Of a DNA stretch of 64,000 bases, positions 1,030 to 47,052 are shown piece after piece. The first letter of the stretch is position 1. Every line of letters starts with the position of its first letter. The position numbers were made by a program, and so were the translations under genes. This DNA comes from Alphaproteobacteria bacterium (GTDB lineage Bacteria > Pseudomonadota > Alphaproteobacteria > Sphingomonadales > Sphingomonadaceae). The notes under the pieces were generated by a model that ran no database searches, was not told where the DNA came from, and saw only the letters and a list, made by a program, of their open reading frames with translations. The stretch is taken from assembly GCA_037190625.1 (NCBI GenBank), contig JBBCJP010000008.1:716-64715 (forward strand), written 5' to 3'.

Positions 1030-3330
1030 TCAGCCCAGCGGCCGTCCGTCCGGATCGACCAGGACTTCGCGGCGGCCGACATGATCGGGGGCGGAGACGA
1101 TGCCTTCCTTCTCCATCCGCTCGATCAGGCGCGCGGCGTTGTTGTAGCCGACGCGCAGCTGGCGCTGGAGATAGGAGGTGGACGCCTTCTGGCTTTCGGC
1201 GACGACCTGGACGGCCTTGCGGAACATCTGGGTTTCGGCATCGTCCTCGCCGGTCGGCTGGCCCTCGAACAGATAGCCGCCGTCCTCCGGTTCCTCGGTG
1301 ACCGCCTGGACATAATCGGGCTGGCCCTGGCCGCGCCAGTAATCCGCCACCGCGCGCACCTCCTCGTCGGAGACGAAGGGGCCGTGGACGCGCACGATCT
1401 GCTTGCCACCGGGCATGTAGAGCATGTCGCCCTTGCCCAGCAGCTGCTCGGCGCCCTGCTCGCCGAGGATGGTGCGCGAATCGATCTTCGAGGTGACCGA
1501 GAAGGAGATGCGGGTCGGCAAGTTCGCCTTGATGACGCCGGTGATGACGTCGACCGAGGGGCGCTGCGTCGCCATGATCAGGTGGATGCCGGCGGCGCGC
1601 GCCTTCTGGGCGAGGCGCTGGATCAGGAATTCGACCTCCTTGCCGGCGGTCATCATCAGATCGGCCAGCTCGTCCACCACCACAACGATCTGGGGCAGGA
1701 TGTCATATTCCAGCTCCTCCATCTCGTAGGTGGGCTGGCCGGTTTCGGGATCGTAGCCGGTCTGCACGCGGCGGCCGAGCGGCTGGCCCTTCATCCGCGC
1801 CTCGCGCACCTTGGCGTTGAAGCTGGAGAGCTGGCGCACGCCGACCGACGCCATCATCCGGTAGCGCTCCTCCATCTGCTCGACGGTCCATTTGAGCGCG
1901 CGGATCGCCTTGGCGGGCTCGGTGACGACCGGGGAGAGGAGATGCGGGATGTCGTCATAGACGCTGAGTTCCAGCATCTTGGGATCGATCATGATCATTT
2001 TGCACTGCTCGGGCGTCAGCCGGTAGAGCAAAGAGAGGATCATGCAGTTGAGCCCCACCGACTTGCCCGAGCCGGTCGTGCCGGCGACGAGCAGGTGCGG
2101 CATCGGCGCGAGATCGGCGACCACCGGATCGCCGGCGATGTTCTTGCCCAGGATGATCGGCAGCGAGGCGACCTGATCCTCGAAAGCCGGGCTGGCGACC
2201 AGCTCGGACAGGCTCACCATCTCGCGTTTGGCGTTGGGCAGCTCGATGCCGATCACCGAGCGGCCCGGAATGGTGGCGACGCGGGCCGACAGCGCCGACA
2301 TGTTGCGGGCGATGTCGTCGGCGAGCTGGATGACGCGGCTGGCCTTGATGCCGCTCGCCGGCTCCAGTTCGTACATGGTGACGACCGGGCCGGGCCGGAC
2401 CTCGACGATCTCGCCCTTCACCGAGAAATCCTCGAGCACGCTTTCGAGCAGGCGGGCGTTGCGCTCCAGCGCGGCCTTGTCGAGCGCCACGTTCACGGGC
2501 GGCGGGGCGGGATTGAGCAGGTCGATCGAGGGCAGGGTGTAGCTGTCGCCCAAAGCCAGCGAGGGCTGGCGCTCGCGCAGGGGGCGCCGCTCGCGCTCTC
2601 GCGGTGCCGTCCGGTCGGCGATCACAGGCCCGCGCTGCGCCTCCGCGGGCGCGACCGCCGCACGGGCCGGGCGCGGCTCGGGCTCCGGCCGGTTGCCGAC
2701 CTGGACGCGCTCGCGCTTCGCCCGCCGTGTCGCAAGCCAGGCGCGCTCCTCCACGGTCAGGCCGAGGCCGAACAGGCACAAGGCCAGGCCGCCCGCGGCG
2801 GCGAGCGCGATCACCGCGATCCGGAACGGCTGGACAAAGCCTGGGTCGCCGAGCTGGGCAAGGCCCAAATCGGTGAGCCCGGCCAAGGCGAGGCCGATGC
2901 CGCCCCCCCAGCCGGCCGGCAACCCGCCGACCGCGCCGCCGACGACCAGCGTCGCGGCGAGGCCGATCAGCAAGATCCCGGCCAAGGTGATGAGGAGCGA
3001 ACGGAGCCAGCGCCCCGCTTCGGCGCCGCGCGCGATCCTGAGCCCGAGCACGAGCAGCAGCGGCAGGACCAGCGCGGAGGGTGGCCCGAGCAGGCTCAGC
3101 ATCAGATCCGCCACCCAGGCGCCGGGCGCGCCGATCCAGTTGCCGACCGGGCCGGCGGCGGCGGTGTTGAGCGAGGGATCGCTGGTCCGGTAGCTCACCA
3201 GAGCGAGCGCGGCGAGCAGCGAGAAGCCCGCCAGCGCGAGGCCGCCAAGCACCGAGCCCGATCGCCGCGCCGCCTGGTTGAGGCCTTCCCGCCACCGCGC
3301 CATCCGGCCCTGGGCTGTCGTCGCCGCCAT
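1030..3330 (-). CDS. ftsK: DNA translocase FtsK
   Basis: N-terminal TM segments, Walker A GTTGSGKS, MIDPKMLELSVY, ATQRPSVDVITG and a C-terminal gamma domain. Start set at MAATTAQ (ATG 3330). Confidence 0.97.
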   Translation of the reverse strand: MAATTAQGRMARWREGLNQAARRSGSVLGGLALAGFSLLAALALVSYRTSDPSLNTAAAGPVGNWIGAPGAWVADLMLSLLGPPSALVLPLLLVLGLRIARGAEAGRWLRSLLITLAGILLIGLAATLVVGGAVGGLPAGWGGGIGLALAGLTDLGLAQLGDPGFVQPFRIAVIALAAAGGLALCLFGLGLTVEERAWLATRRAKRERVQVGNRPEPEPRPARAAVAPAEAQRGPVIADRTAPRERERRPLRERQPSLALGDSYTLPSIDLLNPAPPPVNVALDKAALERNARLLESVLEDFSVKGEIVEVRPGPVVTMYELEPASGIKASRVIQLADDIARNMSALSARVATIPGRSVIGIELPNAKREMVSLSELVASPAFEDQVASLPIILGKNIAGDPVVADLAPMPHLLVAGTTGSGKSVGLNCMILSLLYRLTPEQCKMIMIDPKMLELSVYDDIPHLLSPVVTEPAKAIRALKWTVEQMEERYRMMASVGVRQLSSFNAKVREARMKGQPLGRRVQTGYDPETGQPTYEMEELEYDILPQIVVVVDELADLMMTAGKEVEFLIQRLAQKARAAGIHLIMATQRPSVDVITGVIKANLPTRISFSVTSKIDSRTILGEQGAEQLLGKGDMLYMPGGKQIVRVHGPFVSDEEVRAVADYWRGQGQPDYVQAVTEEPEDGGYLFEGQPTGEDDAETQMFRKAVQVVAESQKASTSYLQRQLRVGYNNAARLIERMEKEGIVSAPDHVGRREVLVDPDGRPLG

Positions 3331-41020: not shown

Positions 41021-41066
41021 CACAATGGCTAGTGGCGCTTCAAAGGGGGAGCCGCTAGCGGTTGTG
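41021..41066. promoter_or_regulatory. Tandem NrdR boxes
   Basis: CACAATGGCTAGTG (41021-41034) and CGCTAGCGGTTGTG (41053-41066), 32 bp apart, upstream of RNR genes. Confidence 0.75.
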
Positions 41067-41192
41067 GGAGCGTGACCCGGCGGGCATTTGCCGCCGGGCG
41101 AGGCCGGCCTGTCTCTGTGGATATCGGGGACAAGCGCAAAATCGCCCGCCGCTCCCCATATTAGGCGCCTATGATGGCGTGTGGTTCCGCTG

Positions 41193-41207
41193 GAACGTTT
41201 TAAGAAC
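41193..41207. promoter_or_regulatory. Alphaproteobacterial LexA box
   Basis: GAAC-GTTTTAA-GAAC (GAAC-N7-GAAC), 13 nt before the nrdA ATG. Confidence 0.6.
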
Positions 41208-41220
41208 ATGGGGTAGAGTG

Positions 41221-43116
41221 ATGGACCTGTCCGGCAGCAATGAAGTGAGCGCGAGCGACGTGACGACGGAAGTGCAGGAGCGTCCGGCCAAGGCCGCCCC
41301 CGCCAATTCGAAGTCGGTGACGCCGAACCCCTATAAACTGGAGCTCGACCGGAGCCGTGATGGCCTGCTGACCGATTTCGGCAAGGACACGCTGCAGGAC
41401 CGCTATCTGCTGCCCGGCGAATCCTACCAGGATCTCTTCGCGCGCGTCGCCTCGGCCTATGCCGACGACGAAGCGCATGCCCAGCGGCTCTACGATTATA
41501 TCTCGCGCCTGTGGTTCATGCCGGCGACGCCGGTCCTGTCCAATGGCGGCACGGGCCGGGGCCTGCCCATCTCCTGCTATCTGAACAGCGTGTCGGACAG
41601 CCTGGAGGGCATTGTCGGCACCTGGAACGAGAATGTCTGGCTCGCCTCGCGCGGCGGCGGCATCGGCACCTATTGGGGCAATGTGCGCGGCATCGGCGAG
41701 GCGGTCGGCCTCAACGGCAAGACCAGCGGCATCATCCCGTTCGTGCGCGTGATGGATTCGCTGACGCTCGCGATCAGCCAGGGCTCGCTGCGGCGCGGCT
41801 CGGCCGCCTGCTATCTCGACATCTCCCATCCGGAGATCGAGGAGTTTTTGGAAATCCGCAAGCCGTCGGGCGATTTCAACCGCAAGGCGCTGAACCTCCA
41901 TCACGGCGTCCTGATCTCGGACGCCTTCATGGAGGCGGTGCGCGACGGGACGGAGTGGGTGCTGCAAAGCCCCAAGGACGGCTCGGAGCGCGGCTCGGTG
42001 GACGCCCGCGCCCTCTTCCAGAAGCTGGTCGAGACCCGCCTCGCGACCGGCGAGCCCTATATCATCTTCATCGATCAGGTGAATCGCTCGATGCCCAAGC
42101 ATCACCGCGATCTGGGGCTGAAGGTCACCACGTCGAACCTGTGCAGCGAGATCACGCTGCCGACCGGCACCGATCATCTCGGCGCTGATCGCACCGCCGT
42201 GTGCTGCCTCTCCAGCCTCAATCTCGAGACCTGGGACGAATGGAACGGCGACAAGACCTTCATCGAGGACGTGATGCGCTTCCTCGACAATGTGCTGACC
42301 GACTATATCGATCGCGCGCCGGACGAGATGGCCCGCGCCCGCTATTCGGCCAGCCGGGAGCGCAGCGTCGGCCTCGGCGTGATGGGCTTCCACTCCTTCC
42401 TCCAGGCGCGCGGCCTGCCGTTCGAGGGGGCGATGGCCAAGTCCTGGAACATGAAGATCTTCAAGCATGTCCGCGCCCAGGTGGACGAGGCGTCGCTGAT
42501 GCTCGCCAACGAGCGCGGGCCCTGCCCGGACGCGGCCGACATGGGCGTGATGGAGCGTTTCTCCTGTAAGATGGCGATCGCGCCCACCGCGTCGATCAGC
42601 ATCATCGCCGGCGGCACCTCGGCCTGCATCGAGCCGATCCCGGCGAATATCTACACGCACAAGACGCTGTCGGGCTCCTGGTCGATCAAGAACCCGCATC
42701 TCCAGGCTTTGCTCAAGGAGAAGAGCAAGGACAGCGACAGCGTGTGGAATTCGATCCTGGAGCGGGGCGGCTCGGTCCAGCATCTCGATTTCCTTACGAG
42801 CGAGGAAAAGGACACGTTCAAGACCAGCTTCGAGATCGACCAGCGCTGGCTGATCGAGCTGGCGGCGGACCGCACGCCCTATATCGATCAGGCGACCAGC
42901 CTGAACCTCTTCATCCCGGCCGACGTGGACAAGTGGGACCTGCTGATGCTCCACTATCGCGCCTGGGAGCTGGGCATCAAATCGCTCTATTATCTGCGCT
43001 CCAAGAGCGTGCAGCGCGCCGGCTTCGCGGGCGGCGTGGAGGCGGACAACACGCCCGATCTCAAGGAGATCCAGATCGAAAGCACCGATTATGACGAGTG
43101 TTTGGCGTGCCAATGA
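41221..43116 (+). CDS. nrdA: Class I ribonucleotide reductase alpha subunit (short, no obvious ATP cone)
   Basis: FMPATPVL, ISCY, TSNLCSE catalytic motif, AIAPTASIS, SLYYLRS, C-terminal ECLACQ. Confidence 0.96.
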   Translation: MDLSGSNEVSASDVTTEVQERPAKAAPANSKSVTPNPYKLELDRSRDGLLTDFGKDTLQDRYLLPGESYQDLFARVASAYADDEAHAQRLYDYISRLWFMPATPVLSNGGTGRGLPISCYLNSVSDSLEGIVGTWNENVWLASRGGGIGTYWGNVRGIGEAVGLNGKTSGIIPFVRVMDSLTLAISQGSLRRGSAACYLDISHPEIEEFLEIRKPSGDFNRKALNLHHGVLISDAFMEAVRDGTEWVLQSPKDGSERGSVDARALFQKLVETRLATGEPYIIFIDQVNRSMPKHHRDLGLKVTTSNLCSEITLPTGTDHLGADRTAVCCLSSLNLETWDEWNGDKTFIEDVMRFLDNVLTDYIDRAPDEMARARYSASRERSVGLGVMGFHSFLQARGLPFEGAMAKSWNMKIFKHVRAQVDEASLMLANERGPCPDAADMGVMERFSCKMAIAPTASISIIAGGTSACIEPIPANIYTHKTLSGSWSIKNPHLQALLKEKSKDSDSVWNSILERGGSVQHLDFLTSEEKDTFKTSFEIDQRWLIELAADRTPYIDQATSLNLFIPADVDKWDLLMLHYRAWELGIKSLYYLRSKSVQRAGFAGGVEADNTPDLKEIQIESTDYDECLACQ

Positions 43117-43472: not shown

Positions 43473-44525
43473 ATGCCCCTTCTTCAGGCCTCCAAGACCT
43501 ACAAGCCCTTCGAATATCCCTGGGCGTTCGAGTTCTGGAAGCGTCAGCAGCAGATTCACTGGATGCCCGAGGAGGTGCCGCTCGGCGAGGATTGCCGCGA
43601 TTGGGCGCAGAAGCTGACCGAGCATGAGCGCAATCTGCTCACCCAGATCTTCCGCTTCTTCACGCAGGCCGATGTCGAGGTGCAGGATTGCTACCACGAC
43701 AAATATGGCCGCGTGTTCAAGCCGACCGAGATCAAAATGATGCTGACGGCCTTCTCCAACATGGAGACGGTCCACATCGCGGCCTATTCCCACCTGCTCG
43801 ACACGATCGGCATGCCGGAGAGCGAATATTCGGCCTTCCTCCAGTACAAGGAGATGAAGGACAAGCACGACTATCTCGCCACCTTCGGCGTCGACAATGA
43901 CGAGGACATCGCCAAGACGCTCGCCATGTTCGGCGGCTTCACGGAGGGGCTGCAGCTCTTCGCCAGCTTCGCGATGCTGATGAACTTCCCGCGCTTCAAC
44001 AAGATGAAGGGCATGGGCCAGATCGTGAGCTGGTCGGTCCGCGACGAAAGCCTCCATTGCGAGGGCATCACCCGCCTCTTCCACGCCTTCGTGAAGGAGC
44101 GCGATTGCCTGACCAAGAGCGTGAAGGACGACATCCTCGACGTCTGCCAGAAGACGGTCCGGCTGGAGGACGCCTTCATCGATCTGGCGTTCGAACAGGG
44201 CCCCGTCCCCGGCATGACGCCCAAGGAGATCAAGAAGTACATCCGCTACATCGCCGACTGGCGCCTCGGCCAATTGGGCTTCGCGCCGATCTACATGGTC
44301 GACGAACACCCCCTCCCCTGGCTCGCCCCGCTCCTCAACGGCGTCGAGCACGCCAACTTCTTCGAAACCCGCGCGACGGAATATTCGAAGGCCGCGACAC
44401 GGGGGAATTGGAACGAGGTCTGGGACAATTTCGACCGGCGGCAAAAGGCTAAGGTCGCGAACGACGCGCCGGAAGGCGAGGGCGGGGACGACATGTTCAC
44501 GCGGGCCGGTGTGGCGGCGGAGTAA
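43473..44525 (+). CDS. nrdB: Class Ia ribonucleotide reductase beta subunit
   Basis: FFTQAD, METVHIAAY (metal ligands plus radical Tyr), FTEG, RDESLH. Confidence 0.96.
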   Translation: MPLLQASKTYKPFEYPWAFEFWKRQQQIHWMPEEVPLGEDCRDWAQKLTEHERNLLTQIFRFFTQADVEVQDCYHDKYGRVFKPTEIKMMLTAFSNMETVHIAAYSHLLDTIGMPESEYSAFLQYKEMKDKHDYLATFGVDNDEDIAKTLAMFGGFTEGLQLFASFAMLMNFPRFNKMKGMGQIVSWSVRDESLHCEGITRLFHAFVKERDCLTKSVKDDILDVCQKTVRLEDAFIDLAFEQGPVPGMTPKEIKKYIRYIADWRLGQLGFAPIYMVDEHPLPWLAPLLNGVEHANFFETRATEYSKAATRGNWNEVWDNFDRRQKAKVANDAPEGEGGDDMFTRAGVAAE

Positions 44526-44531
44526 AATGAC

Positions 44532-44559
44532 TTGTCAGGTCGTCGTGCCCTTGTAATTT
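44532..44559 (+). promoter_or_regulatory. Candidate sigma70 promoter for a leaderless RT transcript
   Basis: TTGTCA-N16-TAATTT, then 6 nt to the ATG at 44566; no clear SD. Confidence 0.4.
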
Positions 44560-44565
44560 GAGAAA

Positions 44566-46038
44566 ATGCAGGCGGATTTCGTTCGTGACGCCCTTTTGCA
44601 GGCGAACTATTTCCCAAATCACAAGGTCAAAAGTAGGGAGATGCCTCCCTGTTTTCATACGAAGCACCTCACTTCGGCAGTAGCAGCGGCTATCGTCGCT
44701 GCTCAGAAGCCCGCACCCGGAAAATATAAGGGCTGCGACTATGCCCAATATACCCTCACCCGTTTCAACGGGGGTCCAAGGGTGTGCGGGATTCCTCACC
44801 CGTATTCCTACTGCGTTCTTGTCGAGAAAATCCATCAGGAATGGGATCGGATAAAGCCGCAACTCATTTCAAGCTCTAGCGCTATCCAACCCAAGCAGCA
44901 TGCAGATGGACGCTTGTTTGTTATGGACTACGGAAATCAGCGAGCAACATCTGCTCGCTACTTGAACAAGCAGGCATCGGCGCGATTCATAGTCAACGCG
45001 GATATCGCGAATTTTTATCCTAGTCTCTACACTCACGCGATTCCTTGGGCAATCGTCGGCATCGACAATGCGAAACAAAATATCAGCGCAAAGAAATGGT
45101 ATAACGCGTTAGATCGGGATATTCGAAACTGCCGCAGAGCTGAAACTAACGGTGTTTCCATTGGCCCCGGCACTTCAAGCCTAGCTGCCGAGATAGTCCT
45201 ATCGCAAATAGATAGGAAGCTAGAGAAACAATTCACATATAATCGCTTCATAGACGATTATACGTGCTACACTCGCTCCAGACAGAGCGCCGAGGACTTT
45301 TTGCGTCAACTAGAGACTGAGCTTGCTAGATACAATCTATATTTGAATTTCCGTAAAACTAGAATTTTTTCAATGCCGGATTCTGAAATACCGCGTTGGA
45401 TTGATCAACTGGCAGTTGATACGCTTCCGAATCAGCCGTCATTCTATCAGACGAAGATTTTTATAAATCGCGCACTCCATCTTTCTGAAGAGTGCCCTGA
45501 CGGAAGTGTCCTCAGATACGCCATACATTCGCTCACTGGAAGAAAATTTGACAAGGGTACCGGAGAATATATTCTCAGAATCTTGCTAAGCCTCGGCCTT
45601 AATCATCCTCATGTGGCTTCTTCCATTGAGCCTTTCCTAGATTATGGATATGATAATGCTGGTAACTTCAAGTACACAACAGAGTTGGTATCACTTGTAG
45701 AATCTTCTGCCCTCGCACGCCGATCGGACGCAATTTGCTGGTCCCTGTGGATGGTGCGGCAAACTGGAAGTGCTCTTCCACTTGGGGTCGAAACTCTGGT
45801 TCTAAAGACATACGATACTTTCGGCCTAGTAGCGCTCTATCAGGTTGCCTCATCTCAAACGCGTCGATCCATTACCTTGTTTGTTAAAAAGCGAGTGCTG
45901 AGCCGTCCGCATTCGGTTGTGGAGAGGAACTGGTTCCTAGTTCATTACCTTCTAAATACAGGCCGACTGGCAGTCGCCGATGTGAACGACGCATCGCTGA
46001 GGGTGTTGAAAGCGCAATCCACCAACCTTTTTGATTGA
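44566..46038 (+). CDS. Stand-alone reverse transcriptase, DRT4 (UG15)-like anti-phage RT, 490 aa
   Basis: RT motifs ADIANFYPSLYTHAIPWA, GVSIGPGTS..AEIVL, RFIDDY, LNFRKT. Family-type segments NYFPN..EMPP, YTLTRFN..PR..GIPHP, QPKQHADGRLFVMDY, PDGSVLRYA and RRSDAICW recalled from DRT4. Many A/T-ending codons. Confidence 0.8.
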   Translation: MQADFVRDALLQANYFPNHKVKSREMPPCFHTKHLTSAVAAAIVAAQKPAPGKYKGCDYAQYTLTRFNGGPRVCGIPHPYSYCVLVEKIHQEWDRIKPQLISSSSAIQPKQHADGRLFVMDYGNQRATSARYLNKQASARFIVNADIANFYPSLYTHAIPWAIVGIDNAKQNISAKKWYNALDRDIRNCRRAETNGVSIGPGTSSLAAEIVLSQIDRKLEKQFTYNRFIDDYTCYTRSRQSAEDFLRQLETELARYNLYLNFRKTRIFSMPDSEIPRWIDQLAVDTLPNQPSFYQTKIFINRALHLSEECPDGSVLRYAIHSLTGRKFDKGTGEYILRILLSLGLNHPHVASSIEPFLDYGYDNAGNFKYTTELVSLVESSALARRSDAICWSLWMVRQTGSALPLGVETLVLKTYDTFGLVALYQVASSQTRRSITLFVKKRVLSRPHSVVERNWFLVHYLLNTGRLAVADVNDASLRVLKAQSTNLFD

Positions 46039-46144
46039 GTCGAAATTTGGGGACTCTGATTGCGGCGCGAATTCCGGGCACACAATACCCAATTCGGATT
46101 ACGGTGACAGTGCACTAAATTAGCGCATTGCTCCCCAATCCTCC

Positions 46145-46446
46145 TCAATCCCGCCAATAGCTTCCCCGCTCCGCGCCGTCGAAACCGGCCGGAGGACATG
46201 CAGTAGCGCTTGAAATCTCTTCCCCGAACCGCATGGGCACGGATCGTCGCGGCCGAGTTTCTCGACCAACTCCTTCTCGCCGCCGCGCAAGAAGCGCAGC
46301 CCGCGCTTCACCCGCGTCTCGCTCGGTAAGCCCCTTCCTTCATTGCGAGCTCGCAGGGCGCGGCAATCCCGATTGCGACGCGACTGGATCGCCACGGCGC
46401 TACGCGCCTCGCGATGACGGACGATAAACCTCGGAACCCGGATCAA
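46145..46446 (-). CDS. SEC-C motif protein, apparently needing two +1 frameshifts; start uncertain
   Basis: PSETRVKRG...[22 protein letters not shown] in frame 0. A +1 shift at TTT-C (46215-46212) gives [10 protein letters not shown], and a second +1 at TTT-C (46184-46181) gives [11 protein letters not shown]-stop (46147-46145). Confidence 0.6.
46339..46419. repeat. Inverted pair of CGTC-type REPs (same family as 27457-27872)
   Basis: TTCATTGCGAGCTCGCAGGGCGCGGCAATCC ... CTGGATCGCCACGGCGCTACGCGCCTCGCGATGACG. Confidence 0.8.
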
Positions 46447-46467
46447 AGTACCACTTTGATCCGCCCC

Positions 46468-47052
46468 TCAGCACCAACCCTCCCGCCGCCCTGTCCACGT
46501 CCGCGCCAGTCCCTCGCTGACCAGCTGGTCGCCCAGGCTGCGTCCGTCGCGGATCACGACGCGCAGCTTGCGGCCATATTGGTCCTCGTCCCGGCCGCTC
46601 GCCAGCGGGTGCAGCTCGATCGGCCCCTGTGCGATCAGCGTCCGCATCCGCGCCGTCGCGCGCCGCGCCAGATCGCTTTCATGGGCGCAGCGCCCGTCCA
46701 TTTCCGGTGTGTCGATATCGGCGATCCGCACCTTCAGCCCACGAAAGCGGAACGTGTCGCCGTCGATCATCCGCACCTCGCCCGGCCGTGCGATCGTCAC
46801 GTCACTGCGCGTCACGCCCGCACCAGCCGCGCCTTGCGGCGCCGGTCCTTGCGTCCAGACCGGCAGGCCGATCAGCGCGATGGCGAGCCCGGCGAAGATG
46901 CCCCCCAGCAAGGTCAGCCGGATTTCGCCCGCGCTGAACCGCCAGCGGCTTCGGCCACGGGCGCGCGCCCGACGCCGGGGACGGTTCCACCGGAAGGCCC
47001 GTCCGGTCGCCTGCCGGCTCCAATCGCGGTTCGGGTCCCAATGCCTGGACAT
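46468..47052 (-). CDS. Thermonuclease (SNase-like) family protein, membrane-anchored
   Basis: IDGDTF, VRIADIDTPE, DQYGRKLR, LVSEGLAR.W; TM segment before the nuclease domain. Confidence 0.9.
   Translation of the reverse strand: MSRHWDPNRDWSRQATGRAFRWNRPRRRARARGRSRWRFSAGEIRLTLLGGIFAGLAIALIGLPVWTQGPAPQGAAGAGVTRSDVTIARPGEVRMIDGDTFRFRGLKVRIADIDTPEMDGRCAHESDLARRATARMRTLIAQGPIELHPLASGRDEDQYGRKLRVVIRDGRSLGDQLVSEGLARTWTGRREGWC

Follow-up and report, generated by a model that had tools for sequence, protein, structure and literature searches.

A divergent DRT4 reverse transcriptase gene behind the ribonucleotide reductase operon of a sphingomonad, at a variable slot for defence genes

Introduction

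The reverse transcriptase (RT) DRT4, also classified as UG15, is a bacterial defence system encoded by a single gene. The best described representative is that of Escherichia coli 21-C8-A (PDB 9vdo, 9vdv, 9ltm, 9l9s and 21ou), in which an RT lobe is followed by a helical alpha-Rep lobe. It has been shown that the enzyme forms a hexamer, built as a dimer of trimers, and primes on a tyrosine, so that a short, purine-rich and untemplated single-stranded DNA (ssDNA) remains joined to the protein. The enzyme is activated by phage ssDNA-binding proteins (SSBs) and, independently, by the phage ribonucleotide reductase NrdAB through raised deoxynucleoside triphosphates (dNTPs); once activated, it cleaves RNA in a dNTP/dGTP-dependent manner and aborts the infection (PMC12783706; bioRxiv 10.64898/2026.10.21.760695; bioRxiv 10.64898/2026.10.27.754916). 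A preprint from the Pausch group reports that the C-terminal tail of the E. coli protein is required for activation of the ribonuclease (RNase) by an SSB (gp44). The nearest other systems, DRT6 (UG12), AbiK and Abi-P2 (PDB 9wy8, 7r06 and 7r08), have the same fold and belong to the same hexamer-forming, protein-primed, template-independent class 1 family. In this study we describe a DRT4 gene in a draft genome of the family Sphingomonadaceae (assembly GCA_037190625.1, contig JBBCJP010000008.1, positions 716 to 64,715 of the forward strand). The whole 64,000-nucleotide stretch is referred to here as the window, and coordinates are counted from its first letter unless another locus is named. The gene occupies positions 44566-46038 of the forward strand, directly behind the host genes nrdA and nrdB for class I ribonucleotide reductase (RNR).

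Taken as a whole, the locus is in our judgement best explained, with good though not complete confidence, as a functional-looking DRT4 gene placed in an apparently recombinase-free hotspot for defence genes that lies behind nrdB in this family, with probable read-through from the nrdAB promoter. The nrdB hotspot itself does not appear in any paper found in a full-text literature search.

Results

Judged by profiles, predicted fold and phylogeny, the gene is a genuine full-length DRT4/UG15 RT of the class 1 UG/Abi group. The PADLOC Drt4 model (PDLC02180) matched residues 3-488 over profile positions 6-494 of 532 (2.1e-137, 457 bits), and the Pfam RVT_1 match (5.8e-15) shows that the RT palm is present. 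A sequence search of the PDB returned DRT4/UG15 chains as the best matches (1.2e-73), with about 31% identity to E. coli DRT4. The AlphaFold2 model, built with 15 homologues, has a mean pLDDT (predicted score in the local distance difference test) of 71.6 and consists of an RT lobe (about residues 1-275) and a helical alpha-Rep lobe (about residues 276-490) that replaces the thumb; residues 290-490 form helices, at pLDDT 80-95. Comparison of the model by Foldseek ranked DRT4 (9vdo, template modelling (TM) score 0.79) and UG15 (9l9s, 0.80-0.82) first, followed by DRT6 (0.71) and then AbiK and Abi-P2 (about 0.5). In the phylogenetic tree the protein fell within DRT4, apart from DRT6-type proteins, with a support of 100 for the split. 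A preliminary description of the locus, made from the sequence alone, had called the gene a single-gene RT of the DRT4 (UG15) type and had proposed that its class be checked by phylogeny and PADLOC; profile, PDB search, fold and tree agree with the assignment and place the protein with DRT4 and not with retrons, group II introns or AbiK.

It is very improbable that the gene is an RT of another class (DRT6/UG12, AbiK, Abi-P2, retron or group II intron) or an inactive remnant, and this explanation is already largely refuted. It could draw on the fact that the PADLOC models for Drt6, AbiK and Abi-P2 also score on the same protein (285, 141 and 107 bits), on an NCBIfam Drt4 score just under its cut-off, and on the catalytic motif, which is FIDD instead of YxDD. 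However, the Drt4 models score far above the others and across the full length, the ORF (open reading frame) is intact with all catalytic residues retained, and F and Y alternate at the first position of the motif within the family. Membership in DRT6, AbiK or Abi-P2 was rejected on the lower profile scores, the separate position in the tree and the lower rank in the fold comparison. Retrons and group II introns were rejected as well, since their models scored below 50 bits and no non-coding RNA (ncRNA) or Rfam match was found.

Functional residues named in the three papers on E. coli DRT4 were located by alignment to that protein, and their conservation was read from an alignment of 15 homologous sequences (alignment A1). 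The priming tyrosine (E. coli Y125) corresponds to Y122 (codon 44929-44931), the catalytic aspartates (D240/D241) to D230/D231 of the FIDD motif (codons 45247-45258), and the RNase pair (H160/D192) to H157/D183 (codons 45034-45036 and 45112-45114). Among the residues of the DNA channel, K24 and R75 correspond to K20 and R72, and S333/K336/Y337 to S314/R317/Y318. Y122, D230/D231, H157/D183, R72 and S314 are invariant in A1, as is I229. The FIDD motif, already pointed out in the preliminary description, lies at residues 228-231 and aligns to YIDD at 238-241 of the E. coli protein, with F228 at the place of Y238. By homology to E. coli DRT4, the protein would assemble into a hexamer and prime on its own Tyr122, with the short untemplated ssDNA remaining covalently attached; dNTPs raised by a phage and/or a phage ssDNA-binding protein would then switch on the RNase site formed by His157 and Asp183, and the infection would be aborted. 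We regard the gene as a functional-looking DRT4 whose likely mechanism is modelled on the E. coli enzyme. Template-independent synthesis by DRT4 and its sensitivity to dNTP levels, which the preliminary description had mentioned, are in print in papers of 2025-2026.

Several properties of the protein weigh against this interpretation. The NCBIfam equivalog model for Drt4 (NF041749) was matched at 421.9 bits, 28 under the curated cut-off of 450, although the match covers the profile end to end (positions 2-486 of 489); the relatives G354 and G161 exceed the cut-off. We read the low score as that of a divergent DRT4 member, not of a non-member. In the RT lobe the AlphaFold2 model has only moderate confidence (71.6 overall). 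The residues that read purines in the E. coli enzyme are changed, N124 to D121 and N285/D286 to I275/P276. The C-terminal sensory tail (E. coli residues 508-540, with N521, F523 and E525 in the motif NNPFxED) is absent: the window protein ends about 35-45 residues before E. coli DRT4, a few residues past a GVxF-type motif. According to the alignment, DRT4s of enterobacteria, Pseudomonas and Burkholderia have the tail, and it is missing from the window protein and from all the sphingomonad relatives aligned, four from loci behind nrdB (L005, L027, L049 and L040) and one from elsewhere (L004). The tail does not define the family, because the 489-position NCBIfam model was matched up to position 486. 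With the tail missing and N124, N285 and D286 replaced, the mechanism described for E. coli DRT4 may transfer incompletely to the window protein, and in this tail-less lineage, known so far only from sphingomonad-type genomes and metagenome contigs, both the trigger and the composition of the product may differ from those of the E. coli enzyme.

The DRT4 ORF begins with ATG, has 490 codons and lies in the same orientation as nrdA (41221-43116, forward strand; Pfam Ribonuc_red_lgC, 3.5e-113, and Ribonuc_red_lgN) and nrdB (43473-44525, forward strand; Pfam Ribonuc_red_sm, 1.9e-75). The nrdA ORF is open from 41062; its likely ATG at 41221 was placed by N-terminal alignment with congeners. A spacer of 40 nt (44526-44565, forward strand) separates nrdB from DRT4. 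It holds no terminator-like site in a terminator scan, and its predicted fold is no better than that of shuffled sequences (z = +0.79). The public protein cluster that contains the gene (P0002) begins at Met26 (position 44641) and has 465 aa. The start at 44566 is the better call, because residues 1-25 are conserved in 490-aa homologues, with M1, R7, L10, L11, N14, P17, S23 and E25 invariant. On the right, the DRT4 gene and a convergent gene for a small SEC-C-motif protein (46120-46446, reverse strand; Pfam SEC-C, 1.5e-5), which forms the native right flank, are 81 nt apart from stop to stop (46039-46119); neither a significant hairpin (z = -0.83) nor a terminator-like site was found in this junction. 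An SNase-like nuclease gene follows (46468-47052, reverse strand; Pfam SNase, 1.8e-8). A perfect 11-nt inverted repeat, CGGATCAAAGT and ACTTTGATCCG with a 3-nt loop, was observed between the SEC-C and SNase genes at 46439-46463.

The DRT4 gene is compositionally foreign. Its GC content is 47.9% against 67.6% for the window, and GC at third codon positions is 48.7% against 84-89% in the neighbouring genes. The drop is abrupt: GC is 0.43-0.52 over 44600-46200 against 0.60-0.75 on either side, and is back to at least 0.60 after about 46100. The codons ATA, AGA and CTA occur at 16, 14 and 22 per thousand in the DRT4 gene and are essentially lacking in the neighbour genes. No DRT4 homologue was detected in 36 congeners and 24 further genomes of the same order. 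Searches for phages with a close DRT4 homologue gave no match, and plasmid matches were at most 32% identical. Among the annotated ORFs between 39 and 50 kb of the window there is no integrase, transposase or partner gene, and no Rfam family or transfer RNA was found near the DRT4 gene. A target-site duplication or terminal inverted repeat bracketing the gene was sought, and only short chance matches were obtained; the left and right junctions of the insert have no repeat in common, and no duplicate of the nrdB 3' end was found in the window. These results bear out most of the preliminary description, which had reported a co-oriented 490-aa RT gene 40 nt past nrdB without mobility or partner genes and had read it as horizontally acquired. 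Its account of the foreign codon usage stands for ATA, AGA and CTA and for the low GC; TTA, listed there as frequent, occurs once.

An abrupt change of composition in a 25-contig draft genome with 3.6% estimated contamination could also result from misassembly, in which a low-GC fragment of another organism was joined into the contig. We consider this hardly credible. Both flanks of the insert are native sphingomonad genes in their ancestral order (nrdB, then SEC-C and SNase). The layout nrdB-DRT4-SNase recurs in four independent metagenome assemblies (L005-L008) and at two further loci (L040 and L249), and half of the related genomes, closed ones included, have a low-GC insert at exactly this site.

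The DRT4 gene lies behind nrdB because the spot just past the nrdB stop is a defence hotspot in this family. For a survey of the DNA downstream of nrdB, each of 60 genera of the family was represented by one genome and 29 congeners were added, which gave 85 usable flanks (57 genera and 28 congeners). Islands were defined as segments of at least 600 nt, starting at the nrdB stop, with a GC content at least 10 points under the local background. They were present in 28 of the 57 genera and 17 of the 28 congeners, with a median length of 1.4-1.7 kb. In a control of 20 other alphaproteobacterial families, each represented by one genome, at most one island was found, and on this ground we rejected the idea that Alphaproteobacteria in general show a low-GC dip past nrdB. 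Among congeners, similarity breaks off precisely with the nrdB stop codon, which is the left border of the slot; on the right no border is conserved. At 33 of the 45 occupied sites an ORF of 100 aa or more, in the same orientation as nrdB, starts within 100 nt of the nrdB stop, and empty sites have a stronger, GC-rich hairpin right after nrdB. At an empty site in another genus (L178), 31 nt separate nrdB from convergent SEC-C and SNase genes, and the window DRT4 is interposed exactly between nrdB and this gene pair. SNase homologues, found right of nrdB or of the cargo in about 20 of the 60 genera, are the commonest right neighbour.

The cargo differs from genome to genome: an all-against-all BLASTP comparison revealed almost nothing in common. 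By raw count, defence-type genes were present in 11 of the 13 islands examined. They include a Pycsar cyclase (PycC, 1.7e-80) with a putative membrane protein, two OLD/AriA/GajA-like ATPases, PDC-S33 and (weakly) PDC-S34, a DUF4062 protein, and STAND NTPases (a NACHT NTPase and an AAA_16/nSTAND NTPase). Three restriction-modification pairs were also identified, which combine a C5-methyltransferase with a NotI-like protein, an N6/N4-methyltransferase with an unknown protein, and an MT-A70 protein with a BglII-like protein. No recombinase or mobility gene was seen among the annotated cargo proteins, which are a subset of the island ORFs. The PycC gene (L138, from genome G384; 72-1422 of the fetched stretch) is preceded by an ORF of 213 aa directly behind nrdB. 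This ORF appears to have hydrophobic stretches, and the pair looks like a complete two-gene Pycsar-like module. At six other sites (L165, L167, L142, L160, L173 and L130) cargo ORFs of 255-458 aa were observed, several of them without a Pfam or PADLOC match or unscanned; these low-GC proteins are candidates for undescribed defence genes.

Two loci provide a hint as to how cargo is exchanged. In both, a second, partial nrdB 3' end lies beyond or beside the cargo: in L180 (G485, same genus as the window) at about 828-926 nt of the fetched stretch (33 aa, 82% identity), and in L249 at 981-1187 (82 aa, 41% identity). These duplicated ends look like traces left by cassette exchange that was anchored in homology. 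Taken with a left border that is sharp and a right border that is ragged, they suggest that single defence genes or small modules may be swapped at the first bases past the nrdB stop by recombination that is anchored in nrdB, which is highly conserved, and that ends on the far side in an irregular join.

To see how often DRT4 itself occupies this position, protein clusters, GTDB genomes and metagenome contigs were searched for linkage. Seven further DRT4 genes behind nrdB were found: L005 (and L006-L008), L209, L027 (= G161), L255, L049, L040 and L249. Their nrdB genes are 80-91% identical to that of the window, and the linked DRT4 genes have a GC content of 39-54% in host flanking DNA of 53-70%. 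In L005 the DRT4 start codon overlaps the nrdB stop, and in L255 the DRT4 tblastn match starts 12 nt past the nrdB match. The SNase-like right neighbour is common to the window, L005, L040 and L249. Recurrent linkage, proposed as a check in the preliminary description, is real, and is confined to sphingomonad-type genomes. In all, 8 of the 11 sphingomonad DRT4 genes lie behind nrdB. The remaining three (L003, L004 and G354) do not, and they include the closest relatives of the window DRT4, L003 (5090-6562) and L004 (about 1677-3155), at 71-72% identity. The L003 and L004 genes, with about 48% GC in hosts of 62-65% GC, lie between a LysR-family regulator gene and parC, a region that may be a second variable slot. 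Adjacency of DRT4 and RNR outside sphingomonads was rejected: none of about 150 DRT4 loci from other phyla has such an nrdB neighbour, and weak RNR large-subunit matches within a few kb, found at two of them, are roughly what is expected by chance. In L209 two additional co-oriented ORFs (162 and 254 aa; 1059-2311) lie between nrdB and the DRT4 gene, whose product is 60% identical to that of the window; the slot can therefore hold stacked cargo.

The linked DRT4s form three groups that are 31-40% identical to each other. Group A comprises the window protein, L209 and L005 (52-60% identity within the group), group B L049, L040 and L249 (47-60%), and group C L027 and L255 (84%). The first tree left these groups in a polytomy. 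In a fuller tree all linked DRT4s, together with the unlinked L003 and L004, form one clade with a support of 77 in the Shimodaira-Hasegawa-like approximate likelihood ratio test (SH-aLRT). Several independent captures of DRT4 at nrdB, which were considered, cannot be claimed from a polytomy followed by one weakly supported clade. Because the linked copies may be one lineage, the 8 of 11 cannot be counted as eight independent events. Among homologous DRT4 loci no conserved cassette ends were found, and homology stops at the ORF. The linked DRT4s may represent a single old lineage that moves from slot to slot by flank homology, in which case the linkage would be inherited and not selected time after time.

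The nrdA promoter region of the window contains several conserved elements. A search for the canonical 16-mer of the regulator NrdR (ACACWATATATWGTGT) with up to 3 mismatches gave no match in the window, and phylogenetic footprinting was used for this reason. Alignment of the nrdA upstream regions of congeners revealed two conserved NrdR-like 14-mers (41021-41066, forward strand), CACAATGGCTAGTG at 41021-41034 and CGCTAGCGGTTGTG at 41053-41066, spaced 32 nt centre to centre, with outer halves that look like NrdR boxes. NrdR itself is encoded in the genome. We tentatively describe these boxes as putative NrdR sites; the assignment remains tentative because the textbook 16-mer is not matched. 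A LexA-type box of the alphaproteobacterial pattern (GTTC-N7-GTTC; 41193-41207, reverse strand) lies 14 nt before the nrdA start, and is one of only two matches to this pattern in the window. Immediately ahead of the ribosome-binding site, 7 of 9 congeners retain the corresponding GAAC-N7-GAAC. NrdR and LexA boxes had both been proposed earlier for this promoter. The LexA box is present and conserved in the genus, whereas for NrdR there are NrdR-like boxes in place of the canonical one. A further 14-mer, TGTGGATATCGGGG (41116-41129, forward strand), in the nrdA leader or promoter region, is identical in 9 of 9 aligned congeners and fits neither the LexA-type nor the NrdR-type pattern. Co-orientation, the 40-nt gap and the lack of a terminator make read-through the simplest reading of the anatomy, and DRT4 is probably transcribed in this way from the nrdAB promoter; cargo at the slot in general, as an added co-oriented cistron, would probably be expressed likewise from the NrdR/LexA-type promoter.

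Discussion

The position of DRT4 behind nrdAB is explained mainly by the hotspot and not by a rule specific to DRT4. The preliminary description had suggested that the position could couple expression to dNTP demand or DNA damage. Such coupling is plausible in view of the published activation of DRT4 by phage NrdAB and dNTPs; a position specific to DRT4 is not supported, as the nrdB 3' flank is a general hotspot that also receives unrelated defence genes. Under a different explanation the position has been selected: a dNTP-sensing DRT4 is kept behind nrdAB so that it is made in step with the host reductase. This could come about by derepression of NrdR or LexA control while the cell is infected, or the DRT4:RNR ratio could be fixed and thereby set the trigger threshold; the hotspot would then not account for the linkage by itself. 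Phage NrdAB and dNTPs do activate DRT4, and nrdA is preceded by conserved boxes of the NrdR-like and LexA types. The linkage has been kept across lineages only 31-40% identical, with the tight spacing seen in L005 (start/stop overlap) and, by tblastn, in L255 (12 nt). The linked DRT4s that were aligned lack the SSB-sensing tail and might rely on the dNTP branch of activation. Against such coupling stands the unbiased sample of 85 flanks, in which DRT4 occurs, among 45 occupied sites, only in the index case, while the other cargo lacks a nucleotide theme. About 150 DRT4 loci outside the sphingomonads have no nrdB neighbour, and their two weak RNR large-subunit matches are about chance. In the best tree the linked DRT4s are one clade, such that the linkage may have arisen once and spread by flank-homology exchange. 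The closest relatives of the window DRT4 are located elsewhere. On balance selected coupling seems to us an unlikely explanation.

Two points about the site nevertheless belong with the reservations given above for the protein. Eight DRT6/UG12-type RTs of the same order, for which Drt6 is the best PADLOC model (G142, G323, G371, G373, G121, G215, G407 and G110), were examined for linkage, and none lies behind nrdB, compared with 8 of 11 for DRT4; this counts in favour of coupling, and a purely generic hotspot does not obviously predict the difference. In addition, the recombination mechanism that we suggest for the hotspot is drawn from footprints in the sequence. We retain the hotspot as the main explanation. 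A selected tie between DRT4 and the reductase is an attractive minority reading, to which we give a low probability; in its favour are that phage NrdAB is a published trigger of DRT4, that the lineage is tail-less, that the linkage has persisted and that DRT6-type RTs are missing from the slot.

A broader form of this idea is that the nrdAB operon serves as an infection-responsive docking station for promoter-less defence cassettes, with a tighter tie for the tail-less DRT4. We think that this is improbable, though its consequences would be of interest. Cassettes caught at the nrdB stop would inherit NrdR/LexA control and would be induced by the disturbance of dNTP pools or the DNA damage that accompanies phage attack; co-translation with the host reductase would set the trigger threshold of DRT4; and the persistence of a DRT4 lineage behind nrdB down to about 31% identity would be explained.

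Regardless of which explanation applies, the locus is useful in several respects. It provides a natural tail-less variant with altered base-reading residues, with which the generality of the activation model developed for E. coli can be tested. An essential, tightly regulated operon ends here in a slot that is sharp to one base, and half of the family holds differing defence genes in it. Three RT defence systems are reportedly triggered by phage ribonucleotide reductase, and a DRT4 gene on the host operon offers a direct genetic test of whether dNTP-sensing immunity is tuned by the context in which the gene is expressed. Candidate defence genes that lack annotation can also be mined cheaply from the slot, as several cargo proteins have no family match.

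Compared with E. coli DRT4, the window gene likewise stands without a partner gene or ncRNA and encodes an RT lobe joined to an alpha-Rep lobe, and the priming tyrosine, the catalytic aspartates, the RNase histidine and aspartate and the DNA-channel residues are kept. It differs in that the protein is only about 31% identical and shorter (490 against 540 aa), is tail-less, has FIDD for YIDD and changed purine-reading residues, and is encoded by the third cistron behind host nrdAB. The gene is mainly an ordinary though divergent member of the known DRT4 family, which it extends into the sphingomonads. DRT6, AbiK and Abi-P2 are a weaker match in both profile score (285 bits for Drt6 against 457 for Drt4) and fold (TM 0.71 and about 0.5 against 0.8), and DRT6-type RTs from this order, which group in a clade of their own, do not lie behind nrdB, unlike the window gene. 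DRT9 and DRT2 are described as RT defence systems that are activated, as is DRT4, by a dNTP rise driven by phage NrdAB, and this shared infection cue is what ties them conceptually to ribonucleotide reductase. Unlike DRT4, they are class 2 systems with ncRNA templates, and the cue published for them is the reductase of the phage and not the operon of the host; their relation to the window protein is weak (DRT9 structures, TM 0.2-0.3 by Foldseek).

Defence hotspots flanked by core genes and devoid of mobility genes are known from other bacteria, such as the cDHS sites of Pseudomonas aeruginosa and the defence-island hotspots of E. coli. As in hotspots of the cDHS type, a single site beside a conserved gene holds varied defence cargo of foreign composition among relatives, and integrases and transposases were unseen in the annotated cargo of the nrdB slot and around the window insert. 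In contrast to those hotspots, the slot has a left border fixed to one base position (the nrdB stop) and an unconserved right border. The cargo mostly comprises one to three co-oriented genes, often abutting or overlapping that stop, and behaves like an added cistron of an essential operon of the NrdR/LexA type. The nrdB slot thus adds one more case to a kind of hotspot already known, with an unusually sharp docking point inside an operon.

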